Part shown: positions 4,536-47,652 of the stretch, in pieces | How the letters are laid out: the number at the start of each line of letters is the position of its first letter | Position numbering within the stretch: the first letter of the stretch is position 1 | DNA from: Gemmatimonadota bacterium | GTDB lineage: Bacteria > Gemmatimonadota > Gemmatimonadetes > Palauibacterales > Palauibacteraceae | DNA: 64,000 nucleotides | Direction: 5' to 3' | NCBI GenBank assembly: GCA_049668445.1 | Contig: JBATJK010000299.1 | Location: 55,973-119,972, forward strand | Notes under the pieces: generated by a model | What the model was told of the DNA's origin: nothing | What the model saw: only the letters and a program-made list of their open reading frames with translations | The model's database searches: none | Program-made: the position numbers and the translations under genes

Positions 4536-5132
4536 ATGGCAGGGGCGCAGGACTTGACCCGGGCCCTTCGGACTCCCGAGATGTATGTTCAGTCAGCATT
4601 GCGGGACACTTCGAGAACGAGGACCGGCTTGGGAACCGATTGGGCGGCGATCTACGAGGCGTCGTACGACGACCTGGTGCGTTTCCTGTACCGCATGGTG
4701 TGGGAGGAGGACCGGGCGCACGACCTCGTTCAGGAGACCTTCGTGCGGGCCCTTCGACACGATCCGGAGCAGCCTCGGGCGTGGCTGTTTTCGGTAGCAC
4801 GCAATCTGGCGCGCGACGAGGCCCGTACGGCGATTCGCCGACGACGCCAACTGGCGCTGGTTCGGGTTGAAGAGTCAGACCGCGTTGCGGAGGATGTGGA
4901 TCAGGAGATGGAGCGCACGGAGCGACACCAGGCCGTCGAGGCGGCTCTCGATCGATTGAGCGAGAGGGATCGCGAGGTCCTGCTGCTGTGGGACGCAGGG
5001 CTGAGCTATGACGAGATCGCTGAGCAGACGGGGCTGGCTCGCGGAGCTATCGGAACGACCCTCTCGAGGGCGCGTCGGCGACTGGTCGACGCGCACAGGA
5101 CGGGAGAGGACCAGAATGCCACACATCCCTGA
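4536..5132 (+). CDS. RNA polymerase sigma-70 factor, ECF subfamily
   Basis: Region 2 reads IYEASYDDLVRFLYRMVWEEDRAHDLVQETFVRAL. Region 4 reads REVLLLWDAGLSYDEIAEQTGLARGAIGTTLSRARRRL. The start could also be ATG 4581. Confidence 0.85.
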   Translation: MAGAQDLTRALRTPEMYVQSALRDTSRTRTGLGTDWAAIYEASYDDLVRFLYRMVWEEDRAHDLVQETFVRALRHDPEQPRAWLFSVARNLARDEARTAIRRRRQLALVRVEESDRVAEDVDQEMERTERHQAVEAALDRLSERDREVLLLWDAGLSYDEIAEQTGLARGAIGTTLSRARRRLVDAHRTGEDQNATHP

Positions 5133-6276
5133 AGGCCAGCTGCATGCCTGGATTGATGGTGCGATCCCCGAGGGCTCGGAGGAGGGGCGTACCGTCCGTC
5201 TCCACCTCGAAGCGTGCTCGGACTGCGCCGCGCGCCTCGAAGATGCTCGCGCGTTGCGCGATGCTGCAGGAGAGATCCTGGAGTCGGTCATTCCTCTCGG
5301 ATCGGCACCACCCTTCGAGCAGATCCAGCAACGAGCTCGGGCCGGGGCAGGCGAGCCAAAGCCGTCGGCTTCCCGGAGCGGCCGGGTGCGAATGGGATGG
5401 CTGTCGCCCCAGCGGCTTGGCTGGGCGGCAACGATCGCCCTCGCCCTCGGGGCCGGTTGGATCGGGCGGGCCGTGCTCGAAGAAAAGGGCTGGACGGACC
5501 CGTTCCACGAGGGACAGGTGCAAGCAGTCAGCCCCGCCGTTGATTCGGAAGCCGCCCGTCAGAACGCGGCGGAGCTTCTTGCGGACGACGCGGTGGGAGA
5601 GGCCGAGTCGAAGGAACTCGGTCTGCGGAAGGACCGCCTGGCCGAAGCCAGCGAGGAACCCTCGAAGGCTGCCGCGGCTCCTCGAGCCGAAGAGACCGCT
5701 CCGGTGGAGTTGCGGGCCCAGGGAGGAGTGGCTCGTGAGCAAGCTCCCGCAGATGCCGCCGACGAGTCTGAGGTGGATGCGGACCAGGGAGGGGCGGACG
5801 GGGTCATGGCACCGGCCGCGGAGGACCGTAGTCGTGATTCCAGGGCCAAGTCCGTTCGCCCCCCGATCGATCCGTGGCACTCCATCCCCGAGGTTCGCGT
5901 CGCGCCGACCTCGGACGTCGTCGGGTGCTATCGGCTCGAGTTTTCCTGGTCGCCTGAAACGGGCTATCTGCCAGGGACGCTGGAACTGACTCGCGACGAA
6001 CCGGCGGGCCGAGCCGGGCAATCCATCTTCTCCATCGCTGTCCCCGGTCAAGCGCAGCCGCTGCTGCACGAGGCGATCTGGGCGTCCCCCGCATCGGATT
6101 CGGTCTGGGTCCGTCTGGTCACGGGCGAGGAACGGGCGGCGTTCACCGTGCGCGCGGGGCGGGCGCAGTCGAATTGGGTTGGGGAGGGGCGTGTCTGGAT
6201 GCCTGGCTCTCCAGTCTCCGCCGGACAGGTGCGCGGTGCCGTGAGCCTGGTACGGACCGACTGCGAGCCGTCGTGA
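5116..6276 (+). CDS. anti-sigma factor (zf-HC2 type) with one TM segment and a long extracytoplasmic domain
   Basis: ATG 5116 overlaps the last 17 nt of the sigma gene. It carries the H-x3-C-x2-C motif HLEACSDCAARL and a TM segment WAATIALALGAGWIG. The ORF-track start at 5008 lies inside the sigma gene and was rejected. Confidence 0.7.
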   Translation: MPHIPEGQLHAWIDGAIPEGSEEGRTVRLHLEACSDCAARLEDARALRDAAGEILESVIPLGSAPPFEQIQQRARAGAGEPKPSASRSGRVRMGWLSPQRLGWAATIALALGAGWIGRAVLEEKGWTDPFHEGQVQAVSPAVDSEAARQNAAELLADDAVGEAESKELGLRKDRLAEASEEPSKAAAAPRAEETAPVELRAQGGVAREQAPADAADESEVDADQGGADGVMAPAAEDRSRDSRAKSVRPPIDPWHSIPEVRVAPTSDVVGCYRLEFSWSPETGYLPGTLELTRDEPAGRAGQSIFSIAVPGQAQPLLHEAIWASPASDSVWVRLVTGEERAAFTVRAGRAQSNWVGEGRVWMPGSPVSAGQVRGAVSLVRTDCEPS

Positions 6277-6560
6277 ACCGGGAGGACCGTACGGGGCCTG
6301 ACCTGCTGCGGCGCCTTCGGACGGCGAGGGCCATCTACGAAGGCATCTACTTCGTCCCATACCGGATGACGATCCACCGCGAGTATTTGCGCCAGAGGGA
6401 CCTGTTGTTCGTGCTCGGATTCGCGGATCTGCTCGGCGTGCCCAGCCCGTTGCAGTTCTATACGCTTGAACTGCTCCCGGAAGTACTGGAGCAGTTCCAC
6501 GAGTGGCACCTTCGCATGGGAATGGCCGAGGCCCCGGAGGGAGGCTTCCGGTGCTGCTGA
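6273..6560 (+). CDS. small conserved-looking protein ending in Cys-Cys-stop
   Basis: GTG 6273 overlaps the anti-sigma stop (GTGA). Third codon positions are GC-rich throughout. The sequence is helix-like: IYEGIYFVPYRMTIHREYLRQRDLLFVLGFADLLGVPSPLQFYTLELLPEVLEQFHEWHLRMGM. The C-terminus is GGFRCC*. The upstream part of ORF-track entry 6174..6560 overlaps the anti-sigma gene. Confidence 0.5.
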   Translation: MNREDRTGPDLLRRLRTARAIYEGIYFVPYRMTIHREYLRQRDLLFVLGFADLLGVPSPLQFYTLELLPEVLEQFHEWHLRMGMAEAPEGGFRCC

Positions 6561-6597
6561 GCGCGGCGTGAGCCACCTTGAGGCCCTGCAGGAGGCC

Positions 6598-7554
6598 ATG
6601 GCACGCCCCCTCCTGTTCTTCGGCGGCAAGGGCGGGGTAGGGAAGACCACTTTGGCGGCAGCCCGGGCCCTCGAGTCAGCCGCCCAGGGCACCCGAACGC
6701 TTCTCGTGTCTACTGATCCGGCCCACTCGACCAGTGACGCCCTGGAAGTCACGCTGGGGCCGGAGCCCCGGGAGGTCTCGTCGGATCTGTGGGCGATGGA
6801 GTTGGACCCGGCCACTGAGACCGAGCGCTATGTGGCGGAGGTACGGGAGCGCATCGCGGACGCTGTCCCGCCGCGCCTGGCCGGTGAAGTGGAACGCCAG
6901 CTGGACGTTGCCCGGGCCTCGCCCGGCTCCCAGGAAGCCGCCCTCTTTGATCGCTTCGCGAGGATCATCGCCGAACGACGATACGAGCGGATCGTATTCG
7001 ACACAGCCCCTTCGGGACAGACGCTTCGTCTCCTTTCCCTCCCGGAACTGATGACGACCTGGATGGGGTCGCTGATCTCACAGAGGAAGAAGGTCACCGC
7101 CCTGGGGCGGATGTGGCGCAATGTGGCCGGAGAGGCGGCCGGCTCTGAATCGCAGGGCAGGGATGTGGTGATCGAGGCACTGGAAGAGCGACGTGAGCGC
7201 TTCTCGAACGCGCGCGATATGCTCTGTGATCCATCTCGCACCGCGTTTCTGTTCGTCACCGTCGCCGAGCGATTGCCCGTGCTCGAGACGCACCGGATCA
7301 TGACGGCGCTTTCAAGGCACGGCATTCCGGTAGGAGGCGTGATCGTGAATCAACTCCTTCCCGGCACCACCACCGATGCGTTCCTCGTCCGGCGTAAGGC
7401 CAGGGAAGCGGCACACCTTGCCGACATCGCGATCCGTTTCGAAGATTGGCCCGTCGGCTACCTGCCGCTCCTCGACCGTGACCCCGTCGGGGCGGATCAA
7501 CTGGAGAGCCTGTTCGGCTTGCTCCGTGCGCACGGGACGGAGGCCCCTGCTTGA
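6598..7554 (+). CDS. ArsA/Get3(TRC40)-family P-loop ATPase, single-domain (half-size)
   Basis: P-loop FFGGKGGVGKTT, STDPAHS, and DTAPSGQTLRLLSLPE (canonical DTAPTGHT, with Gln replacing His). The start is ATG 6598, with an alternative GTG at 6568. Confidence 0.85.
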   Translation: MARPLLFFGGKGGVGKTTLAAARALESAAQGTRTLLVSTDPAHSTSDALEVTLGPEPREVSSDLWAMELDPATETERYVAEVRERIADAVPPRLAGEVERQLDVARASPGSQEAALFDRFARIIAERRYERIVFDTAPSGQTLRLLSLPELMTTWMGSLISQRKKVTALGRMWRNVAGEAAGSESQGRDVVIEALEERRERFSNARDMLCDPSRTAFLFVTVAERLPVLETHRIMTALSRHGIPVGGVIVNQLLPGTTTDAFLVRRKAREAAHLADIAIRFEDWPVGYLPLLDRDPVGADQLESLFGLLRAHGTEAPA

Positions 7555-14287: not shown

Positions 14288-15550
14288 ATGACGAGCGCGT
14301 CCGGGAGACAGGTACTTGATGGCGCACTACCGGCGATAGGCGCGGGCCTCACCGGCTTCTTCGTCTCCGTCTCCGCTTGTGCGCCGGAACAGCCCCGGCA
14401 TCCCGAGGTCGTGCCGGGTATCGAGGTCCTTGCCGGAGACTCTGCGCATATCCTGGCCGGACTCCGCGTAGGCCTCATCACCAACCACACGGGCGTTTCC
14501 CGGGACGGTACGCCGGCGGCACAGCTTCTTCTCGACGCGGGGATCGACATCCGGGCACTTCTCGCTCCCGAGCACGGCCTGCGGGGGAGCGGGCAGCCAG
14601 GCCAGGCCGTTCCGGACACAATCGATCAGCTATCCGGACTCCCGGTCCATTCGCTGTACGGCGAGCGCCTCACGCCTGACCCGGCGTTGCTGCAGGAACT
14701 CGACGCACTGGTGTTCGATGTCCAGGACGTGGGAGCCCGCTACTACACCTACGTGTCCACCATGGCCGAGGCGATGCGCGCCGCCGCCGGATCCGGGCTC
14801 CTGTTCGTCGTGGCGGATCGACCGAATCCCATCGGCGGAGAGTTGGTGCAGGGAAACGTGCTGGATTCCGCGTTCGCGTCGTTCGTGGGCCTCTTCCCGG
14901 TGCCCATGCGACACGGCATGACCGCGGGAGAACTCGCACTGATGTTCAACGATGAGTTCGGCATCGGAGCCCGGCTACTCGTAGTCCCCGCCAGTGGCTG
15001 GATCCGGTCTGCCTGGGCAGATCAAACGGGTGTGCCCTGGATCCCCACGTCGCCCAACATGCCCGACCTTGAAAGCGCCACGCACTATCCGGGTACCTGC
15101 CTGTTCGAGGGGACGAGCCTGTCAGTGGGTCGCGGTACCGAGCGCCCGTTTCAGCAGATCGGGGCCCCATGGCTGGACCCGGAGGAAGTAATCGCCGGCA
15201 TGGCCGCGGTGTCCCTGCCGGGAGTTCGCCTGGCGCCCGTGAGCTTCACGCCACGCGGCGCGGACGACGGCAAGTTCGAGGGACGACTGGTGCGCGCGAT
15301 CCGATTGGAGGTGACGGACCGGGGGGCTTACGATCCGACCAGGACAGCTGTGGCGCTGCTGCGGGAAATGCGGCGATCCGCTGGTGCCGACTGGGCCTGG
15401 CGCGCGGCGGCGTTCGACCGGCTGGCGGGAACCGATGGGCTCCGGGTAGCCCTGGACTCCGGCGTGCCGCTGGATCAGATCGTCGAAGGCTGGGCCGCGG
15501 CGCGACAGGACTTCCGGATGGTTCGCGTCCAGTACCTGCTCTATCGGTGA
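14288..15550 (+). CDS. DUF1343 family protein (exo-beta-N-acetylmuramidase NamZ-like)
   Basis: GLITNHTGV, APEHGLRG, SGLPVHSLYGE, and DALVFDVQDVGARYYTYVSTM are the DUF1343 hallmark. The start is probably ATG 14288, because 14051 and 14219 would overlap the divergent acylase gene. Confidence 0.8.
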   Translation: MTSASGRQVLDGALPAIGAGLTGFFVSVSACAPEQPRHPEVVPGIEVLAGDSAHILAGLRVGLITNHTGVSRDGTPAAQLLLDAGIDIRALLAPEHGLRGSGQPGQAVPDTIDQLSGLPVHSLYGERLTPDPALLQELDALVFDVQDVGARYYTYVSTMAEAMRAAAGSGLLFVVADRPNPIGGELVQGNVLDSAFASFVGLFPVPMRHGMTAGELALMFNDEFGIGARLLVVPASGWIRSAWADQTGVPWIPTSPNMPDLESATHYPGTCLFEGTSLSVGRGTERPFQQIGAPWLDPEEVIAGMAAVSLPGVRLAPVSFTPRGADDGKFEGRLVRAIRLEVTDRGAYDPTRTAVALLREMRRSAGADWAWRAAAFDRLAGTDGLRVALDSGVPLDQIVEGWAAARQDFRMVRVQYLLYR

Positions 15551-15577
15551 GCTGCGGCCCCCGATCCCGGCCCCCGG

Positions 15578-16273
15578 CTAGTCCTCCTCCACGACCTCCG
15601 CCAGCTTCTTCTCGTCATAGTAGTCGAGCTTGTGCAGAGGCATGACGACGCTCGACAGCACGTTCAGAACGTGTGCTGCGATCCTCTTGTAGAAACGCGC
15701 ACCCATGACGATGCACGTCGCTGTCGAGGCCGGGTAGTCGCTGCGAGCCACTCTGCCAACGACGGCGTCACACCGACGCGTCAGGTCCCGCCCTTCACGA
15801 ATCAGCTCCACCGCCCTCTCGTGGTCGGACGACTCGAACACGGGCACGACCTCGGCGAATCCGCGCTCTATCTCAGTGCGAATCTCTCTCATCTCGTGGA
15901 CGATCTCGTCGTCCGGCAAAGCGGACGGGTGATAGTCCCGGACCTCGGAGAGGTTCTTGGCGTAGTCGCCGATGCGCTCGACGTCCTTCACCAGGCTCAT
16001 CAGGAGCAGGCAATAGGGCACCGATGTCCTCTCAGATGACAGCGAGAGGTGGGCGATCACCTGCTTTCGGATCTTCCTCTCCAGCTTGTTGACCTTGACG
16101 TCGGTCTTGTAGACAGCCGTCCTGGCGTCTGCCTGGAGGGATTCCGAGAAATAGACCTCCCCGGCGACGATGGTCATGTCGTAGGTAAGGCCCAACATTT
16201 TCGAGAACTTCTCTCCCATTTCGGCTAGCGGCTCACCGGCGCGGAAGATGCTGAGCAGTTCCTTGAGCATCAC
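15578..16273 (-). CDS. PhoU-like / DUF47-type regulator associated with Na/Pi transporter
   Basis: The protein is 231 aa and helical. It sits immediately downstream of the Na/Pi cotransporter gene with a 10-nt gap. It has repeated PhoU-like helices (RIGDYAKNLSE). Confidence 0.65.
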   Translation of the reverse strand: MMLKELLSIFRAGEPLAEMGEKFSKMLGLTYDMTIVAGEVYFSESLQADARTAVYKTDVKVNKLERKIRKQVIAHLSLSSERTSVPYCLLLMSLVKDVERIGDYAKNLSEVRDYHPSALPDDEIVHEMREIRTEIERGFAEVVPVFESSDHERAVELIREGRDLTRRCDAVVGRVARSDYPASTATCIVMGARFYKRIAAHVLNVLSSVVMPLHKLDYYDEKKLAEVVEED

Positions 16274-16283
16274 GTACCTCCGA

Positions 16284-17408
16284 TTACAGCGCCCGGTTCA
16301 ACAATGCGAACAGGGCGGGTAGGCCATAAAACAGAATCAGGATATAGGCAATCGCCATCGTCTTGGACCTGACCGCGAGCCGGGCCAGGCGTCTCGCCAT
16401 ATTCAGCGGGATCTCCCGTATCCTCTTGACGGGATAGATCAGCGCCGTAGCGCTGACGTTGAACAGCAGATGAACCACGGCGATCGTCACCCCGGCCAGC
16501 GCATTCGGTCCCGTGACCGCCAGAGCGGCCAGGAACGCCGTGACGGTCGTGCCGATGTTGGCCCCGATCGTGATCGGGAAAGCCTGCTCGAGCGTGATCA
16601 GACCCGCTCCCGCGAGAGGCACCAGCAAAGACGTGGTGATTGAACTGGACTGCACCATCACGGTGACCACTATTCCGAGAATCATGGCCACGATAGGAGA
16701 GGTGTACAGCCCGCGCGACACCATCGTCTCGACCCGGGAACTCATGGCGCCCCGCATCACCTTCACCAGGAACAGCAGGGCGAAGTAGATCAGAAGGCCC
16801 GAGACCAGGATGAGGAGAGTCGCCTGGAGGCGCTCGGAATCCGAGACCGCGTGGATCCCTCCCTTGATGGGCTTGAGAGCCGCCTTCAGCGCACCCTTGA
16901 TCGGGCTGTCGTATTGCACCCCGCCGAGGCCCGTGAGAGAGGACGACAGCCAGGTCGCGGTCTTCTGCAGATACCCCGTGGCCATCTCGAGCGGGAGCAG
17001 AATGACCACGGCCATGAAGTTGAAGAAGTCGTGGACGGTCGCGACCGAGAAGGCCCGGTAGAACTCGTCCTTCCGTCCCATGTGGGCCAGGGAGACGAGA
17101 GTGTTCGTCACCGTCGTACCGATGTTGGCGCCCATGATCATCGGGACGGCGTTGGCTATGGGGAGCGCGTTCTCGGGCGCCGCGACCAGGCCCACGATGA
17201 GCGAGGTGGAAACGGAAGAGCTCTGGACCAGAGTCGTGGCAAGGATCCCCACCATGAGGCCCATGAACGGATTCTCGGTCGCCTGGAAGAAGGAGTCCAG
17301 CAATCCGCGTCCGAGGGACTTGAACGCGTCCCCCAAGCCGTTGACACCCAGGAGGAAGATGAACAGCAGTGCCAGCACCGTGAGGACACGCGCCAGCGGG
17401 TGTTCCAT
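16284..17408 (-). CDS. Na+/phosphate cotransporter family protein (NptA/YjbB-like)
   Basis: Duplicated Na_Pi_cotrans motifs: QSSSVSTSLIVGLV...ANIGTTVTN and QSSSITTSLLVPLA...ANIGTTVTA. The start is ATG 17408, with an alternative GTG at 17453. Confidence 0.85.
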   Translation of the reverse strand: MEHPLARVLTVLALLFIFLLGVNGLGDAFKSLGRGLLDSFFQATENPFMGLMVGILATTLVQSSSVSTSLIVGLVAAPENALPIANAVPMIMGANIGTTVTNTLVSLAHMGRKDEFYRAFSVATVHDFFNFMAVVILLPLEMATGYLQKTATWLSSSLTGLGGVQYDSPIKGALKAALKPIKGGIHAVSDSERLQATLLILVSGLLIYFALLFLVKVMRGAMSSRVETMVSRGLYTSPIVAMILGIVVTVMVQSSSITTSLLVPLAGAGLITLEQAFPITIGANIGTTVTAFLAALAVTGPNALAGVTIAVVHLLFNVSATALIYPVKRIREIPLNMARRLARLAVRSKTMAIAYILILFYGLPALFALLNRAL

Positions 17409-17893
17409 GAGCGGACGTACGGCGTTTGGGCGAAGCCCGGCGTCGGCATCCACAGCTGATCTCTACTGATAGAGGTAAGCGGCGTCCAGAACCCCAGGCC
17501 TACCACCCGTAGGGGCGGACGAGCAGTGGTTCGGCCGCAAAGTGCCGGGAGGGGTGTCCGGCAGCAAGCCCCCCCGGATCGTGCGATCAGAATCCCCAAT
17601 CTCGTAGGAGAACGCCCCGGCGGAACGGGAAGAGCGTGGCGGATCCCACCGACTCTCGTGCGGGGACTGCTCGCGATCTCGACGCTCGAAGGGTGAAATA
17701 TCGTTGGAGAATCGAACGGTCGGGTGTTGAATCCTGGGACAGACCTCCTAAGACTCTGTCCCTCTTCAGGATAGCCATGTGGACCCCCTGCTTCGACCTG
17801 AACAGGCGTTGAATTGTTCGACAATGCCGCCTCGAGGACCCCTCCATGGATCGCGGCTCTGTGACTTGATAACTACATACGCTAGAGCAAGTT

Positions 17894-17916
17894 GCAGGTC
17901 TGCGCACTGGACCTGC
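17894..17916 (+). promoter_or_regulatory. 7-bp inverted repeat GCAGGTC-N9-GACCTGC abutting the -24 element
   Basis: Read directly from the sequence. It lies 6 nt upstream of TGGCAC. Its function is unknown; it could be a regulator or IHF-type site, or simply a hairpin. Confidence 0.25.
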
Positions 17917-17921
17917 GCCCG

Positions 17922-17936
17922 TGGCACCCGGCTTGC
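17922..17936 (+). promoter_or_regulatory. sigma-54 (-24/-12) promoter TGGCAC-CCGGC-TTGC
   Basis: This is an exact match to the TGGCAC-N5-TTGC core. It lies 52 nt upstream of ATG 17988 and 106 nt upstream of the SD-supported ATG 18042. An NtrC-type sigma-54 activator is encoded at the end of the same gene run. Confidence 0.6.
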
Positions 17937-18041
17937 CTTACAAGTAGCTGAACGGCTACGCCCGGCCGCATAACTGGCCTCCCCGAGATGACGGGGCTGG
18001 TCGGAACCGGACTGAAGGGCAGAACAGCCGGGGAGGATACA

Positions 18042-18701
18042 ATGCTCGCAACCGTCTTCTTGGTAATCGTGGTGACCTTGCTGACCGGTCATTACTTCCT
18101 CGTGGAGCGACCGCGCCGACTCGCTGCTGAGTCCTCGAGTCGCCCCCTCGCTCTCCCGTTGCGGCAGCTCGTCAATCGGTTGCCTGCGGGTGTCTTCCTG
18201 CAGCCGACCTTCACCTGGGGGCAGGTGCGACCTGGCGGAGACGTCGAAATCGGAGTGCACCCAATGCTGCTGTCGCTGCTCGGTCCCAGCCCGGAGCTGG
18301 AAATGCGCAGCGCGGGTGAGCACGTCGACAAGGGGGACCCCCTTATGACAGTTGGTAGCGGGGAGAGGCGTCTCGTTGTCCGATCGCCGGTCGCGGGCAG
18401 CATCACCATGGCCAACGCGACTCCGCCGGTGGAGACGGAGTGGCAGAGCCGAAGCGACCGAACCTGCGTGATCCAGCCGGAGAGTCTGTCCAGCGAGGTA
18501 CCCGGTTGGATGATCGGACAAACGGCGATCGACTGGAGCAGGGAGCAGTACGGACGCATTCGCGACCACCTCCTGGAGCGATCCGCCGATCCCCAGACAG
18601 GGCTCGCTCTGGCGGATGGTGGAGAACTGCCGGTAGGGGCCCTCAACCAGCTGAATGCGGCTGATTGGGTGAACTTTGAAGAAGAGTTCCTGAACGGCTG
18701 A
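18042..18701 (+). CDS. membrane-anchored GcvH-fold (barrel-sandwich hybrid) protein, paralog A, lacking the lipoyl-lysine
   Basis: ATG 18042 has GGGGAGGA 6 nt upstream. The N-terminal TM is MLATVFLVIVVTLLTGHYFLV, followed by ERPRR. The core GEHVDKGDPLMTVGSGERRLVVRSPVAGSITMAN resembles GcvH. The C-terminal LADGGELPV...WVNFEEEFL is shared with paralogs D and E. Confidence 0.6.
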   Translation: MLATVFLVIVVTLLTGHYFLVERPRRLAAESSSRPLALPLRQLVNRLPAGVFLQPTFTWGQVRPGGDVEIGVHPMLLSLLGPSPELEMRSAGEHVDKGDPLMTVGSGERRLVVRSPVAGSITMANATPPVETEWQSRSDRTCVIQPESLSSEVPGWMIGQTAIDWSREQYGRIRDHLLERSADPQTGLALADGGELPVGALNQLNAADWVNFEEEFLNG

Positions 18702-18770
18702 CGCTGGCGGTAACCAACTGACGGGAGACAACGGTTACCCCCCGGACCTTTCATCTCTCAGGAGGCCGAG

Positions 18771-19643
18771 ATGCGTAGACGGACTGCCGTAAAGACCCTG
18801 GCCCTTGCCGCCGGTTCCACACTGGCGGGAAAGAACCTGGCCCAGGCCAGCACTTCTGGCGGAGAAGAAAACCTCGCCGCCACGGCTGAGTCCGCCTCAA
18901 TCCTGGTGGATACGACCAAGTGCCTGGGGTGCAGGATGTGCGAGCGTGCCTGCGCCGAGGCCAATGGCCTGCCCGAGCCGGCGAAGTCAGTGGAGCCGGG
19001 AGAGCAGCGGGACACCACGGAAACCCAGTGGACGGTCGTCAACCGATATGAGACCGAGACCGGCCCGGTTAACGTCAAGCGCCAATGCATGCACTGCCTG
19101 CAGCCGGCCTGCGCCTCCGCATGCCTCACCCGGGCCATGTACAAGACGGACGCCGGGCCGGTGATCTGGAGGGGAGACAAGTGCATGGGTTGCCGCTTCT
19201 GCATGCTCTCCTGTCCGTTCGACGTTCCGAAGTTCGAATACCACAGCGCGAATCCGCGCATTCAGAAGTGCAGGATGTGCTTCGACCGCTTGCAGGAGGG
19301 CGACCTGCCGGCTTGTGTCTCGGGCTGCCCGGCGAAGGCGACCGCTTTCGGCACCCGGAGCGAGATGCTGGACCTCGCCTGGTCGAGGGTGTACGCGGAG
19401 CCCGACAAGTACGTCCACCACGTCTATGGTGAGCATGAGGCAGGTGGCACGGGAGTTCTGTACCTGGCCTCCGTGCCCTTCGACCAGCTCGGATTCCGCA
19501 CCGACCTGAGTCCGCAAGCGTATCCGACCTTCACCCGTGAATTCCTCTATTCGGTCCCGTTCATCCTGACGATGTTCCCGCCGTTCCTGCTCGCGGTCAG
19601 CAAGGCAACGGCCGGAAACCGCCAGGAGGGAGGGGAGGGCTGA
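18771..19643 (+). CDS. Tat-exported 4x[4Fe-4S] ferredoxin-type subunit with C-terminal TM anchor (HybA/DsrO/NrfC-like)
   Basis: AGGAGG precedes ATG 18771. Twin-arginine signal [15 protein letters not shown]. Four Cys clusters: [36 protein letters not shown] and CRMC...CVSGCP. C-terminal hydrophobic segment [18 protein letters not shown]. Confidence 0.85.
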
Positions 19644-19645
19644 TC

Positions 19646-20908
19646 ATGGCAACCGTAACTGCGGACACACCCGGATTCTGGAACGGGACCCGGCGCTTCG
19701 GTCGGTTTCTGGCCGGCGAAATGAAGCCTCGCGGGAAGATCATCACGCCCTTCAACGTGATCACGATCGCGATCATGGCCGTCGCTGCCGTGATCCTGTA
19801 CATCCGCTTCACGCAGGGCCTGGGAGCGGTCACCAACCTCTCGCAGGATGTTCCTTGGGGCCTGTGGATCGGCTTCGACGTAATCACTGGAGTCGCGTTC
19901 GCCGGGGGGGCCTACGTCCTCTGCTTCATGGTCTACATCCTGAACCAGGAGAAGTACCACCCCATCGTGCGCGTGACGGTTCTGAACGGCTTCCTGGCGT
20001 ACGTTTTCTATGCCGGGGCCTTGCTGCTCGACCTCGGACGCCCGTGGAACGTGATCAATCCGATCATCGGCAACTCGTTCGGCGTGAGTTCGGTCCTGTT
20101 CCTGGTCGCCTGGCACTTTCTCCTCTACATGACGGCGGAGCTCCTCGAGTTTGCACCGGCCATCGCCGAGTGGGCGGGTTGGCCCCGCCTGCGTCGCTGG
20201 CTGAACCGCCTGACGCTCGGAGCGGTGATCTTCGGCATTACGCTTTCCACCCTGCACCAATCGGGTCTCGGGGCCCTGTACATGATGGCCCGCGACAAGG
20301 TGCACCCGCTCTGGTACTCGGAGTTCATTCCAATCATGTTCTTCGTTTCGAGCATCTTCGCTGGACTCTCCATGGTGATCTTCGAGGGTTCGATCACGCA
20401 CCGCGTGTTCCACCACCGGGTCGGAGAAGACCTGGAGCGCTCCCACGACAGCATCGTCCGCGGCCTGGCGCGGATCTGCGCCGGGACCCTCTTCGTATAT
20501 CTGTTCCTGCAGGTGCTCGTGTTCGTACACGGACAGAAATGGGAGTACCTGGCAACGGGGTGGGGAGCCTGGTACCTGCTTGAGATGATCGGCTTTGTCC
20601 TCGTCCCCATCGGGTTCTTCCTTCATGGAGTGGCGAAGAAGCGTCCCCGGCTGATCGGTACGGCCGCGGTGCTGACCTTGATCGGGATCGTGCTCAACCG
20701 TCTCAACATCTCGGTGATCGCCTTCAAGTGGTACCTGCCGGTGCGCTACGTGCCCACCTGGCAGGAGATCGTCGTCACACTCGCCGTCCTGTCGGCCGAG
20801 ATCTGGGTGTTCCGCTGGGTGGTCAACCGGATGCCGGTCCTGGACTCCAGTCATGTACGAGCGGAGGCAGTTGAGGAGGCCGACCATGCGCCGGCTTCCG
20901 CAGCCTGA
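19646..20908 (+). CDS. NrfD/HybB/DsrP/PsrC-type polytopic membrane (quinone-interacting) subunit
   Basis: ATG 19646 lies 2 nt after the upstream stop. The protein is 420 aa with about 10 TM segments. Its N-terminal PFNVITIAIMAVAAVILYIRF...GLWIGFDVITGVAFAGG is typical of the NrfD family. Confidence 0.85.
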   Translation: MATVTADTPGFWNGTRRFGRFLAGEMKPRGKIITPFNVITIAIMAVAAVILYIRFTQGLGAVTNLSQDVPWGLWIGFDVITGVAFAGGAYVLCFMVYILNQEKYHPIVRVTVLNGFLAYVFYAGALLLDLGRPWNVINPIIGNSFGVSSVLFLVAWHFLLYMTAELLEFAPAIAEWAGWPRLRRWLNRLTLGAVIFGITLSTLHQSGLGALYMMARDKVHPLWYSEFIPIMFFVSSIFAGLSMVIFEGSITHRVFHHRVGEDLERSHDSIVRGLARICAGTLFVYLFLQVLVFVHGQKWEYLATGWGAWYLLEMIGFVLVPIGFFLHGVAKKRPRLIGTAAVLTLIGIVLNRLNISVIAFKWYLPVRYVPTWQEIVVTLAVLSAEIWVFRWVVNRMPVLDSSHVRAEAVEEADHAPASAA

Positions 20909-20920
20909 GAGGTGAGACCA

Positions 20921-21619
20921 ATGGAAGGCATGGGTGCAGTGGATATCTTCGCGACAAAGGGGATCGAGTACCTGATCGTAATCGGCTTCCTGGTCGCCCT
21001 CGTGTTCTACTGGAAGCTGCTGGGCAGCACGGAGCCCAGCCCCGTTCCCAGTACCTCGAGACGGTCGGGCAGGGGTTGGTTCTCGGCTCCGCGAGACTAC
21101 CTGTTCCACCCGGGACACGCATGGGCAGCCCACGAGGGGAATCGCGTATTCCGCGTGGGCATGGATGACTTCGCGCAGCAACTGATTGGCGAGCCATCCG
21201 CACTCGAGCTGCCGAGCCCCGGAGAGCATCTGAGGCAAGGAGAGCTGGGCTGGACCGTGAAGGTCGGCCCTCGTGCCGTGCGGATGTTGTCCCCTGTCGA
21301 TGGAGTCGTCGAATCGGTCAACCCGGAAGTCGGCGGTTCACCGGGAATCGTGAATGACGACCCGTATGAGGGGGGCTGGCTGATGAAGGTCCGTGTGGCC
21401 GACGCCGACCAGCCCAGACGCAACCTTCTCGCGGCCGACATGGCCAGGGAATGGCTCGACCGGGCCGCCGAAGGCCTGCGGACCATGTGGACGCGGGAAC
21501 TGGGAGTGGCCCTGCCCGATGGTGGCGCCCCCGTGAAGGGGTTCGGGCGAGCGATGTCGGAGGACCACTGGGACGAACTGGCGGAGGAACTTCTCCTCAG
21601 TTCGAGCCTGCCGGAATAG
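20921..21619 (+). CDS. membrane-anchored GcvH-family protein, paralog D, lacking the lipoyl-lysine
   Basis: ATG 20921 (alternative GTG 20912) lies 12 nt after the NrfD-like stop. The TM is IEYLIVIGFLVALVFYWKLL. The GcvH signature is FHPGHAWA...VGMDDFAQQLIG...SPVDGVVESVNPEV...NDDPYEGGWLMKVRV. Pro occupies the lipoyl-Lys position. Confidence 0.7.
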   Translation: MEGMGAVDIFATKGIEYLIVIGFLVALVFYWKLLGSTEPSPVPSTSRRSGRGWFSAPRDYLFHPGHAWAAHEGNRVFRVGMDDFAQQLIGEPSALELPSPGEHLRQGELGWTVKVGPRAVRMLSPVDGVVESVNPEVGGSPGIVNDDPYEGGWLMKVRVADADQPRRNLLAADMAREWLDRAAEGLRTMWTRELGVALPDGGAPVKGFGRAMSEDHWDELAEELLLSSSLPE

Positions 21620-21670
21620 CAGGGACCAGGCGAGCACGAGGACGTTCACGCACAGACCTGGGAGCTTGAG

Positions 21671-22471
21671 ATGGTTACTGCGGGGATGGCAAGACAGCCC
21701 GAAGAAGCGCTTCCCTGCATCTGGGTACTGTCCGGTGTGCTGAGTTATCACTTGTGCGATCGCAACTACGAGTGCGATGGGTGTGAGTTGTATCACGCTC
21801 TCAGCGGAGAAGGAAGAGCATCCTGTCACCACGCCGAAGGGACTTCGCCGGGGTCGATCGACATACTCGACGCGGCGTCGCCCTCGGGGCAGGCCAGCTC
21901 ACACCTTTCGCACTTGCTGGCGGGGTGCCGGCTGTATCTCGACCGACCCTACAGGCCCCCGCACTTCTGGCTCACGCAAACCGAGGGGGATCTGGTCACC
22001 GTAGGCCTGGACGGGTCTCTTCTGCGCATGCTCCGTCCGATTCGCCGGGTCGTGAGTCCTGGGCCGGGGCTCTACCTGGAGCGGGATCAGCCGTGCGGCT
22101 GGATAGCCAGGGAGCACATGGCCGTGCCGCTGAAGATGCCGATCGCCGGAGAAGTTGTTGAAGCCAACTCGACCTTTGCGGCAGCAGACGAGCCGTGCCG
22201 ACTCCCCGATGGCGACGACTGGTTGTTCCGGGTCCGCCCAGCCGAGTCGCTGGAGGCGGTTTCGGGCATCGTGAACGCTGAAGGTACTCTGGCCTGGTAC
22301 GCCGATCGTCTGCGAACCGTCAAGCGGGCGATCCTGCAATCGCTTTCCGTACCTGAGGGATCAACCGTGGGGCCGGTTCTGGCGGACGGTGGGGCCCCGC
22401 TGTCCTCCCTGGAGCGTGTTCTGGGCACGAAGGCATTCGAGGAACTGATCGCCGCCATCGCGCACGGCTGA
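21671..22471 (+). CDS. soluble GcvH-fold protein, paralog E, with N-terminal C-x12-C-x5-C-x2-C motif
   Basis: ATG 21671. The N-terminus is PCIWVLSGVLSYHLCDRNYECDGCELY. The core is HFWLTQTEGDLVTVGLD...MPIAGEVVEAN...DDWLFRVRP. The C-terminal LADGGAPL...FEELI is shared with paralogs A and D. Confidence 0.6.
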   Translation: MVTAGMARQPEEALPCIWVLSGVLSYHLCDRNYECDGCELYHALSGEGRASCHHAEGTSPGSIDILDAASPSGQASSHLSHLLAGCRLYLDRPYRPPHFWLTQTEGDLVTVGLDGSLLRMLRPIRRVVSPGPGLYLERDQPCGWIAREHMAVPLKMPIAGEVVEANSTFAAADEPCRLPDGDDWLFRVRPAESLEAVSGIVNAEGTLAWYADRLRTVKRAILQSLSVPEGSTVGPVLADGGAPLSSLERVLGTKAFEELIAAIAHG

Positions 22472-22649
22472 GGACTCGACCGCCCTCGCAGTACAAGAAG
22501 ATCTGCACTACTCGAACCCTCTCCCCCGGGCACGTATTGTGCAAGGATTCAACACCGCAGAACGCGTTCGCTGCTGATCCGCCGGACAGTGCCCCCTTCG
22601 CACTTCCATGGCCGTCGATTGGGCCTGCGGCGCTAAAGCGAGGCATTGC

Positions 22650-24308
22650 ATGGGCAAGCCTGCCTGGACCTCGGTTCTGAAGTCTGCCATCAGCATACGA
22701 CTGTTCGCGATCCTCTTCCTCTCGATCCTCGGGCTGTTCTTCATCTATACGAGCATCTGTAACCACTATCGGGACACAATGACACTGGAACTCGTTCGCT
22801 CCGAGGCGTTTCGGGCCAGTAGCTTCATCAAGAAGAGCCTCGAAGTGGAGATGATGGAGAAGGAGCGGGAGCACATCCACCGCACGGTGCGTCAGCTGGG
22901 CGCCGAGCCGGGTATGGAAGGGATCCGGATCTACAATGACCGAGGGCAAATACGGTTCTCCAGCCTGGCCGACGAGATCGGTACGAGTGTGCCGCTCGAC
23001 TCGGATGCCTGCCGCGCCTGCCACGGCAGCGGCGATCCGCCAAGCGTTCTTCCGAGCGGAGAGCAGGGGCAGATCTACACCCGTGGAGATCAGGGCCGGG
23101 TTCTCGGGATCCTGAACCCGATCCTCAACGAGCCGAACTGCGCGACGGCAGGGTGCCATGATCCGGACCAGAAAGTGCTCGGCGTTCTCGACGTCCAGCT
23201 CTCACTGGCCACCGTCGATGCGGCCATGTCGGCGGCGACCTGGCGCAGCGGACTCGTCGGACTGGCAATCATCTTCGTGTCTGCCCTGGTGATCGCCCTC
23301 ATCGTCTACAACGCCATCCATATTCCGGCCAAGAAACTGCAGCTCGGCACGGAGGCCCTCGCCGCAGGGAACCTCGACGTATCGATCGATCTGAAGCGCT
23401 CGGACGAGCTGGGGCAGCTGGCCCGTTCATTCAACGAAATGGCCCGCAGTCTCAAGACCGCAGACGCCGAGCTGCGGGATTGGTCACAAACGCTGGAAGA
23501 CCGGGTGACCGAGAAGACCGCTGAACTCGAGTCGATCAGTCGGCAGATGATCCAGGTGGAGCGGGCCGCCTCACTCGGCCGCATGGCGGCGACCGTGGCC
23601 CATGAGCTCAACAACCCGCTCTCCGGCATCGTGACCTACTCCCGCGTGATCGCCCGCAAGGTCGAGAAGGACATGGAAGAGGGGGAGCGCCGGGACAAGA
23701 TCGTCGAGGAGTTGGATCTGATCCGCTCCGAGTCGATGCGGTGCGGCCGAATCGTGAAGGACCTCCTCACGTATGCCCGTGAGTCGCCTCACGAGTTCAA
23801 GGCCGAGCACCTGCACGAGCTGGTCGAACGCGTCACAAACCTGGCCGGGCATCATCTGCAGCTCGGTTCGGTCGAGGTGACCGTGCTGCCAGACCTGGCC
23901 AACGACACGGTGGTGTGCGACGGCGATCAGATCGTTCAGGCACTGCTGGCGCTGATGATCAACGCCGTGGAGGCGATGCCGGAAGGTGGCCAACTCACGC
24001 TCCGCACCGCGCCGGGTGAATCCGATCCCGAGAGAAACGTGCTGCTGGCCGTCGAGGATACCGGGAGCGGCATCCCGGAGGCCATCCGGGGCCGGATCTT
24101 CGACCCCTTCTTCAGTACGAAGGCGGAGACCAGTGGCGTCGGGCTCGGGCTCGCCGTCGTGTACGGCATCATCAGCCGCCACGGTGGCACCATTCGCGTT
24201 GAATCCGGGCCTGGACCCGGCACCACCTTCCTGATCGAACTGCCCCGCGAGCCGGTCACGGCTCCTCCATCCACGTATGAGCTGGACATCAACGAGTGGC
24301 GGACATGA
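22650..24308 (+). CDS. sensor histidine kinase (TM - periplasmic loop with CXXCH and CX4CH motifs - TM - HAMP - HisKA - HATPase)
   Basis: Two TM segments flank a loop of about 165 aa that contains CRACH and CATAGCH. The HAMP domain reads LAAGNLDVSIDLKRSDELGQLARSFNEMA. The H-box is AATVAHELNNPLSGI. The G-boxes are EDTGSGIP and GVGLGLAVVYGI. The start is ATG 22650, or 22608. Confidence 0.85.
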   Translation: MGKPAWTSVLKSAISIRLFAILFLSILGLFFIYTSICNHYRDTMTLELVRSEAFRASSFIKKSLEVEMMEKEREHIHRTVRQLGAEPGMEGIRIYNDRGQIRFSSLADEIGTSVPLDSDACRACHGSGDPPSVLPSGEQGQIYTRGDQGRVLGILNPILNEPNCATAGCHDPDQKVLGVLDVQLSLATVDAAMSAATWRSGLVGLAIIFVSALVIALIVYNAIHIPAKKLQLGTEALAAGNLDVSIDLKRSDELGQLARSFNEMARSLKTADAELRDWSQTLEDRVTEKTAELESISRQMIQVERAASLGRMAATVAHELNNPLSGIVTYSRVIARKVEKDMEEGERRDKIVEELDLIRSESMRCGRIVKDLLTYARESPHEFKAEHLHELVERVTNLAGHHLQLGSVEVTVLPDLANDTVVCDGDQIVQALLALMINAVEAMPEGGQLTLRTAPGESDPERNVLLAVEDTGSGIPEAIRGRIFDPFFSTKAETSGVGLGLAVVYGIISRHGGTIRVESGPGPGTTFLIELPREPVTAPPSTYELDINEWRT

Positions 24309-25648
24309 AGAACGGCAAGAAGATACTGATCGTGGACGATGAGATGTCGGTCCGGAACTCTCTGCGGGAGTGGTTTCTCGAGGACGGATTCGCGGTGGAG
24401 ACCGCCGAGGATGGCAACGCTGCCCTGCAGCGGATGCACTCCGGACCCTACGACATCGTGATCATCGATCTCAAGATGCCGGGGATGGACGGAATCACGC
24501 TGGAACGACGTATCCGCGAGATCGACAAGGACGCCGCCATCATCATCCTCACGGCCTTTGCCTCGGTAGAAACGGCCGTAGAGGCCCTGAAATTGGGTGC
24601 GTTCGACTACGTGACCAAACCCGTCGACCCCGACGAGCTCTCCAACACGGTCCGCAACGCTCTCAAACAGCGTCAGCTCGAGGCTGAGAATACGCGCCTC
24701 AAAGCGAAGGTCTCCGAGCTCACGCTACCGTCGCCGATCATTGGCGACAGTTCGAGAATGCGCCGGGTCCTCGACATGATCTCGACCGTCGCGGGAACGG
24801 ACGCCAACGTGGTGATCCGGGGGGAGAGCGGAACAGGGAAGGAGTTGATCGCCAGGGCTATCCACACCCAGAGCGAGCGACGCTTCTTCCCGATCGTGGC
24901 GGTCAACTGCGGCTCGATCCCGGAGACTCTCCTGGAGAGCGAACTCTTCGGTCACGAGAAGGGGGCGTTTACGGGCGCCCAGTACCGCAGGAAGGGGAAG
25001 ATCGAGCTGGCGCATGGGGGTACGCTGTTCCTCGACGAGATCGGCGACATACCGACGAAGATGCAGGTCGACCTGCTCCGAGTGCTGGAGACCAGGCGAT
25101 TCCATCGGCTGGGGGGCAACCAGGAGATCACCTCCGACTTCAGGCTGGTCTGCGCCACGAATCGTGACCTGGAGGCCCTGATCGAGGAGGGCAGTTTCAG
25201 GGAGGACTTGTACTATCGGATCAACGTATTCGTGATCGACTTGCCCCCGCTTCGCGATCGTCCCGAGGACATTCCGGCGCTCACCCGTCACTTCATCGAG
25301 AAGTACGCTCATGCGATGGGTAAGCCCGTGAAGGAAATATCTCCGGAGGTAGAGGCGTTACTGGTCTCGTATGCCTGGCCTGGGAACGTGCGCGAGTTGG
25401 AGAACGCGGTGGAACGGGCGATGGTGATCGGTCGGGAGCCCTCCGTTCAGCCGGAGGACCTGCCAGTGCCCCTGGCCCGCTCGGAAGCGGAACCGGAGGG
25501 CTCGACGCTGGCGGCCATCGAGCGGCGTCATATTGAGCGCGTGCTCCGGGCAGAGCAGGGGAATATCACCCGAGCGGCTGCGGCGCTCGGCATCGATCGG
25601 GGCACGCTCTACAACAAACTCCGACGCTACGACATTGAGCGCACTTAG
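24305..25648 (+). CDS. sigma-54-dependent response regulator (NtrC/ZraR family: REC - AAA+ - Fis HTH)
   Basis: ATG 24305 overlaps the kinase stop (ATGA). REC domain KILIVDDE...DIVIIDLKMPGMDG. Walker A GESGTGKE. GAFTGA motif EKGAFTGA. HTH TRAAAALGIDRGTLYNKLRRY. Confidence 0.9.
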   Translation: MKNGKKILIVDDEMSVRNSLREWFLEDGFAVETAEDGNAALQRMHSGPYDIVIIDLKMPGMDGITLERRIREIDKDAAIIILTAFASVETAVEALKLGAFDYVTKPVDPDELSNTVRNALKQRQLEAENTRLKAKVSELTLPSPIIGDSSRMRRVLDMISTVAGTDANVVIRGESGTGKELIARAIHTQSERRFFPIVAVNCGSIPETLLESELFGHEKGAFTGAQYRRKGKIELAHGGTLFLDEIGDIPTKMQVDLLRVLETRRFHRLGGNQEITSDFRLVCATNRDLEALIEEGSFREDLYYRINVFVIDLPPLRDRPEDIPALTRHFIEKYAHAMGKPVKEISPEVEALLVSYAWPGNVRELENAVERAMVIGREPSVQPEDLPVPLARSEAEPEGSTLAAIERRHIERVLRAEQGNITRAAAALGIDRGTLYNKLRRYDIERT

Positions 25649-26202
25649 TGGTCACTCGCATTGAGCTCGGCTTTCTCAACGGGTACGCTCCGTCCTGGGC
25701 GGAGCGCATCGTAGAGGGATCGGCCCTGGTCCTGGGGTACCCGGTGGGGGCGGTCGAGCTAGAGATGGAGTTGCCGAGGTACTATTCGGCCGACCGGGGG
25801 CAGTACAACGCCACTTTGATCCTGGCCGGGCTGCTGCGGTATCACTCGGACCCCGAGAGCAAGATCGTCGGAATCACCCGAGTGGACTTGTTTATTCCCG
25901 TTCTCACGTTCGTGTTCGGGCAGGCGCAGCTCGACGGGCCGGGGGCTCTCGTATCCACACACAGGTTGCGCAACGAGTATTACGGACTCCCGCGCGATCG
26001 CGAGCGACTGGTGGACCGCACGATCAAGGAAGTGGTCCACGAGGTAGGGCACTCTTTCGGCCTGGTCCATTGCCAGGACTACAGCTGCGTGATGCACGCC
26101 GCCACCTACGTGGAGGACGTGGACCTCAAGTCCTCGCGTTTCTGCGCGTCCTGCGAGTCGCAGCTTCACAAAGATGCAATACGACCCCGAGAGACCGTCT
26201 GA
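25648..26202 (+). CDS. archaemetzincin-family zinc metallopeptidase (M54)
   Basis: GTG 25648 overlaps the regulator stop (TAGTG). HEVGHSFGLVHCQDYSCVMH...FCASC fits HEXXHXXGX3CX4CXM...CXXC. Confidence 0.8.
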   Translation: MVTRIELGFLNGYAPSWAERIVEGSALVLGYPVGAVELEMELPRYYSADRGQYNATLILAGLLRYHSDPESKIVGITRVDLFIPVLTFVFGQAQLDGPGALVSTHRLRNEYYGLPRDRERLVDRTIKEVVHEVGHSFGLVHCQDYSCVMHAATYVEDVDLKSSRFCASCESQLHKDAIRPRETV

Positions 26203-47650: not shown

Positions 47651-47652
47651 AG

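Follow-up and report, generated by a model that had tools for sequence, protein, structure and literature searches.

We investigated an operon of eight genes in a 64,000-nucleotide stretch of contig JBATJK010000299.1 from the Gemmatimonadota assembly GCA_049668445.1 (the whole stretch is hereafter called the window). The operon spans positions 18042-26202 of the + strand, with a sigma-54 promoter ahead of it at 17922-17936, and encodes two membrane proteins of the kind found in quinone-linked respiratory complexes (B, iron-sulfur; C, NrfD family), three proteins with a domain resembling the glycine cleavage H protein, GcvH (A, D and E), a sensor histidine kinase, an NtrC-type regulator and an archaemetzincin (Table 1). 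The set is a genuine eight-gene operon that is kept across many bacterial phyla. It is best read as a putative Hmc/Nhc-type quinone module that has new cytoplasmic subunits and regulators of its own.

Table 1. Operon genes and 5' elements, with coordinates given as positions in the window (TM, transmembrane).
Feature	Position	Strand	Evidence or remark
Candidate activator-binding region	17736-17916	+	Inverted repeats, partly conserved; weak evidence
Inverted repeat GGGACAGA-N11-TCTGTCCC	17736-17762	+	Candidate activator site
Conserved block GCGTTGAA...TTCGACA	~17806-17830	+	Candidate activator-binding region
Inverted repeat GCAGGTC-N9-GACCTGC	17894-17916	+	Candidate activator site
Sigma-54 (-24/-12) promoter TGGCACCCGGCTTGC	17922-17936	+	Perfect TGGCAC-N5-TTGC match
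A: N-terminal TM anchor, predicted cytoplasmic GcvH-like domain, ADGG-x-P...W..F C-terminal extension	18042-18701	+	
B: Tat-exported, tail-anchored 4x[4Fe-4S] protein, HmcB-like	18771-19643	+	Fer4_11 73.6 bits; HmcB 300.7 bits
C: NrfD-family integral membrane subunit, HmcC-like	19646-20908	+	NrfD 55 bits; HmcC 403.4 bits
D: HmcD-like TM helix, linker, predicted cytoplasmic GcvH-like domain, C-terminal extension	20921-21619	+	
E: soluble; N-terminal Cys4 module, GcvH-like domain, C-terminal extension	21671-22471	+	GCV_H 34 bits
Sensor histidine kinase: TM, periplasmic domain, TM, HAMP, HisKA, HATPase	22608-24308	+	Pfam
NtrC-type sigma-54 activator: REC, AAA+ with GAFTGA, HTH_8	24305-25648	+	Sigma54_activat 239 bits; Response_reg 114 bits
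Archaemetzincin (peptidase M54)	25648-26202	+	Peptidase_M54 89 bits; archmetzin 154.8 bits (NCBIfam cut-off 145)

A first-pass annotation of this DNA, made from the sequence alone, had listed seven tightly spaced open reading frames (ORFs) on one strand. All seven were present on the + strand, with coordinates that matched the annotated ones exactly or differed by a few codons, and the description was borne out when coordinates, gaps and overlaps were checked. The same annotation closed the operon at 25648, where it in fact continues with the archaemetzincin gene. From A to the kinase gene the intergenic gaps measured 69, 2, 12, 51 and 136 nucleotides, and these were followed by overlaps of 4 and 1 nucleotides. 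The kinase, regulator and archaemetzincin genes are translationally coupled, by an ATGA overlap that had been reported before and was verified here, and then by a TAGTG overlap in which the archaemetzincin gene shares 1 nucleotide with the regulator stop codon. No terminator-like site was found between the genes on the coding strand, the sole + strand site (22721) lying within the kinase gene, and the 136-nucleotide gap between E and the kinase gene held neither an internal terminator nor an inverted repeat. The proportion of G and C at third codon positions was 0.74-0.84 in seven of the eight operon ORFs; E fell under the 0.74 filter and was hence unlisted.

The first-pass annotation had also raised the question of whether the neighbourhood recurs across phyla. 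One genome per species was scanned, which returned 275 matching stretches, and the best 80 loci were examined. The gene set recurred in about eight phyla of these species-representative genomes, under the labels Gemmatimonadota; Bacteroidota, Ignavibacteria and Chlorobiota; Calditrichota; KSB1; Thermodesulfobacteriota and Syntrophales; Myxococcales; Acidobacteriota; and Krumholzibacteriia. When the eight window proteins were searched by tblastn, most lineages showed the order GcvH-like gene, B, C, D, E, kinase, regulator and M54 protease, and Thermodesulfobacteriota carried the complete set in a rearranged order. The most conserved gene of the cluster was C, with 55-98% identity across phyla. 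Of the 31 loci whose flanking DNA was long enough for a count of components, all had B, 30 had C, 27 the regulator, 27 a further GcvH-like gene, 25 the M54 protease and 24 the kinase. The D family alone comprised at least 702 clusters at 90% identity. Chance juxtaposition of the genes was ruled out because synteny is kept across phyla. The nearest relatives, at 78-91% protein identity, were mostly metagenome-assembled genomes labelled Gemmatimonadota. In one locus, labelled Akkermansiaceae (L009, CAXMRU010000052.1), the cluster proteins were 75-90% identical to those of the window; this locus is probably mis-binned, since the window otherwise matches Gemmatimonadota genomes.

The nature of the membrane core was assessed by profile searches of the window ORFs against Pfam and NCBIfam. 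The translation of B, read manually, contained 16 cysteines in four complete groups, an RRR motif for twin-arginine translocation (Tat) and a hydrophobic C-terminal tail; its nearest solved structure was FdnH (E 2e-34). The first-pass annotation had described B and C as a HybA/HybB-like pair, which the NCBIfam scores do not favour. B scored better against HmcB (Table 1; cut-off 420) than against HybA (203.8 bits, likewise under its cut-off), and C scored better against HmcC (cut-off 550) than against HybB (260.1 bits, likewise under its cut-off). C also exceeded the Pfam cut-off for NrfD, and a comparison of C with the PDB by sequence gave no match. The N-terminus of D scored 18.6 bits against HmcD (cut-off 34). 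At this same end, the family PF28260 (DVU_0533) is annotated on about 40% of the listed D-family members, and weakly on P0100; DVU_0533 is the HmcD locus. Since D appears to be an HmcD homologue fused to a GcvH-like domain, the core is more plausibly a B-C-D module of the Hmc/Nhc kind than a HybA/HybB orphan.

The GcvH-like domains were clear in D (GCV_H 81 bits; matches of the D profile to GcvH structures in the PDB, E 1e-25) and in E, and fell under the Pfam cut-off of 22.2 in A (18.7 bits). Profile alignment with hhalign joined the A family to the D family at a probability of 99.5% (E 5e-23, 205 columns) and the E family to the D family at 99.0% (E 2e-18). The AlphaFold2 (AF2) model of D showed a helix at residues 11-37, a disordered stretch at 39-53 and a GcvH fold with a predicted local distance difference test (pLDDT) score above 90. 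That of E also showed a GcvH fold, with pLDDT above 90 over the domain and a target-normalised TM-score of ~0.8-0.86 to GcvH. Foldseek searches with the AF2 models returned GcvH structures only (target-normalised TM-score ~0.72-0.86). A C-terminal helical extension with an xDGGxP...W motif was common to all three proteins. Judged by these profiles, A, D and E are paralogues over the GcvH domain.

The lipoyl site of GcvH was sought as the conserved lysine in the hairpin, eight residues before the P of PxxG. At this position D has proline (alignment to Mycobacterium tuberculosis GcvH), E has His149 (alignment to solved GcvH proteins) and A has glutamate with an adjacent arginine (alignment to an E2 lipoyl domain), and the column was variable within each of the three families. 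The earlier description of three non-lipoylatable GcvH-fold proteins therefore holds, the fold being present and the lysine gone. In the family alignment, the N-terminus of D has an invariant FATKGxEY followed by the TM helix. Across 80 D homologues, the N-terminal flank of this helix averaged 1.0 K/R and 2.2 D/E, and the C-terminal flank 2.8 K/R and 0.8 D/E. The TM helix of A begins at residue 1-2, with ERPRR or a similar stretch after it; E has no TM segment. By these flank charges, the positive-inside placement proposed at first pass stands, and the GcvH-like domains of A and D are predicted to be cytoplasmic. Where D-family and other GcvH-like proteins bore a source name in the databases consulted, it was "glycine cleavage system H protein" or merely "response regulator".

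E additionally carries an N-terminal module of four cysteines, C-x12-C-x5-C-x2-C (residues 16-40, window 21716-21790; the Cys4 module), in which C16, C29, C35 and C38 are invariant. Its consensus, C[IV]W[VM]xAGxxxYxLCDRx[YF]xCxxC, was conserved in 43 loci. This region had pLDDT below 50 in the AF2 model of E, no Pfam family matched it, and searches against PDB profiles returned only GATA-type zinc fingers at E ~0.5-0.9. In a library of 1.84 billion proteins the module had 309 representatives and constitutes an unannotated repeat domain. It occurred in tandem before GCV_H domains, together with 2Fe-2S/4Fe-4S ferredoxin domains, and as the sole output of receiver domains (examples are P0196, P0199, P0227, P0244 and P0323). 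In the Thermodesulfobacteriota versions of the cluster (L044:8733-9650, L055:6712-7620, L074:968-1984 and similar loci), E is replaced by a GcvH-like protein with another cysteine motif, CPFLxExKxxFCxAFPxxK...C...CPxY, in one or two copies. This motif was also found ahead of the Cys4 module in P0214, P0233 and P0257.

The sensor kinase, whose true start may be at ATG 22650, has a loop of ~165 residues between two hydrophobic segments. The loop contains CRACH and, 43 residues on, CATAGCH. The first-pass annotation had placed c-haem motifs here; the first is indeed a CxxCH, whereas the second is a Cx4CH and not another CxxCH. Cx4CH is a haem c attachment variant of class III cytochromes. A CxxCH followed ~43 residues later by Cx3-4CH was present in 53 of 55 kinase homologues, and the sensor consensus across phyla read RIYNK.G.I.FS ... 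C..CH ... NPI.NE..C....CH ... LGVLDV. By sequence, the elements of a two-component system are all in place: a HisKA/HATPase kinase, a regulator with REC, AAA+ (GAFTGA) and helix-turn-helix (HTH) domains, and a -24/-12 promoter. The archaemetzincin has an intact zinc site (HEVGHSFGLVH; HExxHxxGxxH) and a C-terminal cysteine pair, and carries no signal peptide.

Control of the operon by sigma-54, as first proposed, agrees with the promoter element itself, which is one of only two perfect TGGCAC-N5-TTGC matches in the window. Its GG and TTGC were kept in close relatives, and many Gemmatimonadota and Thermodesulfobacteriota loci had sigma-54-type elements ahead of their first structural gene. The leader that follows (17937-18041, ~105 nucleotides) was better conserved among close relatives than the DNA upstream of the promoter. 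ATG 18042, which is preceded by a GGAGG ribosome-binding site, was conserved along with the leader, and the upstream ATG 17988 was not; A is therefore taken to start at 18042, in agreement with the start originally assigned. A riboswitch or leader RNA in 17937-18041 was considered and rejected: no Rfam match rose above noise, and the predicted fold was not significantly more stable than shuffled sequence (z-score -1.3). The second perfect sigma-54 promoter of the window (48959-48973, - strand) stands before an operon within 46187-51094 that encodes, on the - strand, a Pyr_redox_2 flavoprotein, a DUF1641 protein, a DsrC/TusE-like protein and a DsrE-like protein, with a divergent gene for a PAS-PAS-sigma-54 activator. 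From its gene content it looks like a FisR-type sulfide/sulfur-carrier operon.

To look for a catalytic or cytochrome partner, the 3,901 flank ORFs of 80 or more residues in the 80 loci were clustered all against all. No molybdopterin, hydrogenase, formate dehydrogenase or HdrD/DsrK-like gene was conserved beside the cluster in these loci, nor was a cytochrome b as a conserved gene or any further enzyme family, and the first three were also missing from the window flanks. The earlier statement that the locus has no catalytic subunit extends to the family for the molybdopterin, hydrogenase and HdrD/DsrK-like types. HmcE (cytochrome b) and HmcF (the HdrD-like CCG protein) were absent from the operon and its flanks and did not recur in the 80 loci. 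A multihaem cytochrome had likewise been reported missing. This is correct for the window, where an HmcA-type cytochrome was looked for and no ORF in the 64 kb has two or more CxxCH, but it does not hold for the family, in which relatives carry class III or large cytochromes; roughly one in four to one in three relatives had a class III multihaem cytochrome c within the cluster or adjoining it. The genes upstream of the operon (a Na/Pi cotransporter with PhoU) and downstream of it (an enolase-superfamily gene) are on the opposite strand and unrelated to it.

The only recurrent extra genes encoded cytochromes c, a 92-residue TM protein and cytochrome b561. A small class III cytochrome c (PF02085) directly followed the NrfD gene in 15 loci. 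Thermodesulfobacteriota variants and the sister cluster described below have a class III cytochrome c after the NrfD gene, and the class III cytochromes of some relatives had 4 to 13 haems. In Pfam and NCBIfam, the cytochromes beside the cluster were PF02085 class III proteins with TmcA-, HmcA- and nine-haem (9Hc)-like matches. Large multihaem cytochromes adjoined the cluster in 11 loci, Gemmatimonadota relatives included; a Gemmatimonadota subgroup has a cytochrome of ~400 residues with eight CxxCH after D-D', and 12 of the 31 full loci had a cytochrome with at least three CxxCH within 7 kb. Since relatives carry cytochromes c in or beside the cluster, the simplest assumption for the missing partner is a c-type cytochrome of the periplasm whose gene lies elsewhere in the genome.

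Some Gemmatimonadota relatives had very large flanking cytochrome genes with 9 to 21 CxxCH (L047:~3400-7000 and 15160-20230; L081:6027-11177; L016, L020 and L022). In five delta-type loci (L044:5045-7817, L042, L058, L074 and L076), a cytochrome b561 gene (Ni_hydr_CYTB) had a gene for a large multihaem cytochrome c next to it, the two being divergent in L042, L044 and L058. These pairs resemble the CbcBA-type pairs under BccR in Geobacter.

In loci labelled Ignavibacteria, Bacteroidota and Calditrichia (L025:1-7794, L051, L034, L060, L040 and L061), a sister cluster lay immediately upstream of the cluster of the window type; in the complete genome CP065001 (L085, 3937-11164) this sister cluster stood by itself. 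It encodes an iron-sulfur protein, an NrfD protein ~32% identical to C, an 11- to 13-haem class III cytochrome c, a ~630-residue kinase with the same Cys-His sensor motifs and two response regulators. Its NrfD protein scored 354.5 bits against HybB vs 270.6 against HmcC. The response regulators have a GcvH-like domain as their only output, and one of them bears an A-type N-terminal TM anchor. This architecture, REC+GCV_H, comprised at least 120 full-length clusters at 90% identity, and the source labels, where given, read only "response regulator" or "CheY-like". Because the GcvH-like domain and the Cys4 module form the effector ends of phosphorelay proteins, they may regulate or dock rather than carry a cofactor, and the fusions are the strongest available hint in this direction. 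The first-pass annotation had proposed a transmembrane relay of electrons or signals. The fusions speak for the signalling or regulatory half of that proposal. NrfD proteins carry no redox cofactor and no haem, and as the operon also lacks a haem b subunit, electrons are unlikely to be relayed across the membrane; a link by conformation or signalling is possible.

The nearest known systems appear, from their sequences, to be Hmc (HmcABCDEF) and Nhc (NhcABCD, with a nine-haem cytochrome), which are quinone-interacting complexes of Desulfovibrio sulfate reducers; membership in either is not established. In Hmc, HmcA is a 16-haem periplasmic cytochrome c, HmcE a cytochrome b and HmcF an HdrD-like CCG protein. 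The operon appears to share with both complexes a Tat-exported four-cluster iron-sulfur protein, an NrfD-type subunit and a single-helix HmcD-type subunit in the same B-C-D order, and its relatives have a class III multihaem cytochrome c beside the NrfD gene. Like Nhc, it is without a cytochrome b and without an HdrD-like cytoplasmic subunit; Nhc is a four-gene unit with a multihaem cytochrome c, whose gene is missing here and found in variant loci. Unlike either complex, the operon scores under the equivalog cut-offs, and HmcA/NhcA, HmcE and HmcF are absent from the window. The HmcD-like part of D is extended by a GcvH-like domain of ~170 residues, and there are two more GcvH-like paralogues. 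The operon further adds the haem-motif kinase, the sigma-54 activator and the archaemetzincin, and its host phyla are mostly not sulfate reducers. With HybA/HybB of Escherichia coli hydrogenase 2 it has in common a Tat-signal, C-terminally anchored iron-sulfur protein and a haem-free NrfD-type subunit, and both matches are significant (204 and 260 bits), but these scores are lower than those for HmcB/HmcC, and no hydrogenase structural or maturation genes occur in the window flanks or the 80 loci.

Among GcvH-fold proteins, the glycine cleavage H protein, LbpA (sHdr) and GcvH-L (Streptococcus) have the same fold as A, D and E and belong to the same recognisable family (GCV_H 81, 34 and 19 bits for D, E and A). 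A, D and E differ from them in having no lipoyl lysine and in having a C-terminal helical extension, TM anchors or a Cys4 module. The operon also has no P/T/L, Hdr, LplA or macrodomain/sirtuin genes nearby. On the regulatory side, the BccR-controlled cbcBA genes of Geobacter sulfurreducens encode a sigma-54-regulated quinone oxidoreductase that is induced at low redox potential. Both systems place a receiver-domain sigma-54 activator over a quinone-linked electron-transfer module of the cytoplasmic membrane, and CbcBA-like pairs adjoin some Thermodesulfobacteriota versions of the cluster. The modules themselves differ: a cytochrome b and a seven-haem cytochrome c there, and the iron-sulfur protein, NrfD, HmcD-GcvH and GcvH paralogues here. 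The BccR/cbcBA paper mentions neither GcvH-like proteins nor an archaemetzincin, and the NrfD-family review (PMC8076601) mentions neither glycine nor GcvH. A literature search, with coverage of less than all journals, found no paper that describes the operon, the Cys4 module, or GcvH-like proteins with a TM anchor or a fused receiver; for HmcB/C/D it found only Desulfovibrio and Tat papers. The claim that the system is undescribed is consistent with this result.

With moderate confidence, we propose that the operon encodes a cytochrome c:quinone module of the Hmc/Nhc type that is controlled by sigma-54 and has new regulatory subunits with the GcvH fold. B would be a periplasmic wire of four [4Fe-4S] clusters held by its C-terminal helix, and C would provide an NrfD-type quinone/quinol site. 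Together they would let the (mena)quinone pool exchange electrons with c-type cytochromes of the periplasm, whose genes lie in the cluster in some relatives and would lie elsewhere in this genome. D would serve as the HmcD-type single-helix subunit, and D and its paralogue A would tether lipoate-free GcvH-fold domains at the cytoplasmic face, with E as a third, soluble one bearing a putative metal-binding Cys4 module. The A, D and E domains would be non-catalytic, most likely regulatory or adaptor subunits of the NrfD module and not lipoate or electron carriers. The kinase would read a periplasmic redox signal through its two Cys-His (haem c-type) motifs and activate the NtrC-type regulator, which would turn on the operon from the -24/-12 promoter. 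The archaemetzincin would be a co-transcribed conserved accessory. Direct observations are the genes present and their domain families, the paralogy of A, D and E, the missing lipoyl lysine, the conserved synteny, the promoter motif and the receiver fusions; the direction and partners of electron flow, the kinase haem, and the cytoplasmic location and regulatory role of the GcvH-like domains are what we infer from them.

Several points weigh against this proposal. The function of the operon is deduced entirely from sequence, and the association of the GcvH-like proteins with B or C is putative. Because B, C and D all score under the NCBIfam equivalog cut-offs, they would be relatives of the Hmc subunits, not orthologues. 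With no multihaem cytochrome anywhere in the window, the periplasmic partner is an assumption. The sensor region of the kinase has only a weak Pfam match (Mcp40H-20_sensor, 21.2 bits; cut-off 27) and no sequence match in the PDB even at E 10. Its second motif is a Cx4CH (Cx3CH in some homologues), and haem attachment is putative. With no haem b, there is no obvious way in which the cytoplasmic domains could sense or affect electron flow other than conformationally, via NrfD. Nor does the proposal account for what the archaemetzincin and the Cys4 module do.

It is possible, if rather unlikely, that the whole assembly is a sensory input device. B and C would then equilibrate the periplasmic haems of the kinase with the quinone pool (quinol to iron-sulfur wire to kinase haems), the GcvH-like proteins would relay the state of NrfD to cytoplasmic partners, and the main output would be other genes, for example multihaem or CbcBA-like cytochromes. 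The kinase, with its conserved Cys-His motifs, is the only c-haem-type protein of the window-type cluster, and kinase, regulator and structural genes stay together across phyla. Use of the GcvH-like domains and the Cys4 module as receiver-domain outputs would fit such a device, as would the cytochrome b561 and multihaem pairs or large cytochrome genes that adjoin the cluster in some loci; a sigma-54 regulator over such a cytochrome pair is known in Geobacter (BccR, CbcBA). However, the kinases retain their haem motifs even where the cluster has a separate class III cytochrome, so the kinase is not simply a cytochrome substitute. A four-cluster iron-sulfur protein with an NrfD subunit would also be a costly input, the operon's own sigma-54 promoter suits a regulated effector at least as well, and B-C-D occurs without a nearby kinase or regulator in L048, L049 and L053.

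We consider it improbable that a conventional enzyme whose genes lie elsewhere in the genome (such as a periplasmic hydrogenase, formate dehydrogenase or molybdoenzyme) relies on B and C for its membrane anchor and electron transfer, in a HybA/HybB-like role, with the GcvH-like genes as unrelated passengers or assembly factors. No hydrogenase, formate dehydrogenase or molybdopterin gene recurs in the 80 loci or lies in the window flanks, the recurrent extra genes being cytochromes c, and the GcvH-like genes are interleaved with B and C, co-conserved with them across phyla and in one case equipped with an HmcD-type helix. These observations stand against the matches of B and C to HybA, HybB and a formate dehydrogenase beta subunit, the more HybB-like NrfD protein of the sister cluster, and FdnH as the nearest solved relative of B. 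Very improbable, in our view, is a role of the GcvH-like proteins as redox-active arms or substrate carriers that bear lipoate or another thiol cofactor (compare LbpA of sHdr and GcvH-L) and receive reducing equivalents or sulfur from the membrane module. The fold is clearly that of GcvH, E has conserved cysteines including the invariant C86 and C142 in or near the domain, and a sulfur-carrier operon (DsrE-like, DsrC-like) lies ~20 kb off in the window. Set against this are the proline, histidine or glutamate at the lipoyl position, variable in each family, and the use of the same domain as a receiver output. There are also no lipoate ligase, Hdr or glycine-cleavage P/T/L genes nearby, and haem-free NrfD proteins offer no cofactor path over the membrane.

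NrfD/iron-sulfur modules are central to many anaerobic respiratory complexes (Psr, Nrf, Dsr, Qrc, Hmc and ACIII). To our knowledge, their regulation is largely unknown, as is any role of the haem-free NrfD subunit beyond quinone binding, and we know of the GcvH fold otherwise only as a lipoyl carrier. The operon offers a widespread and compact test case, in which an NrfD module comes with three dedicated cytoplasmic proteins and its own redox-type sensor kinase, and the sister cluster sets the GcvH fold directly under a receiver domain. Tentatively, the lipoate-free GcvH-fold domains might form a new class of regulatory subunit of NrfD/iron-sulfur quinone modules, in membrane-tethered, Cys4-bearing soluble or receiver-fused forms, through which a periplasmic haem-sensor kinase would control electron flow post-translationally (by phosphorylation or NrfD gating) in addition to its control via sigma-54. 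If true, a two-component system would control a respiratory complex directly, and would do so in at least eight phyla. If the domains are regulatory, they would represent a new use of the fold and would connect two-component signalling directly with the flow of electrons through the quinone pool in phyla of sediment and soil that are rich in multihaem cytochromes (such as Gemmatimonadota, Ignavibacteria and Calditrichota). The label "glycine cleavage system H protein" meanwhile misleads metabolic reconstruction from metagenomes. The system is real, widespread and unannotated, and through it the regulation of NrfD modules could become open to study.

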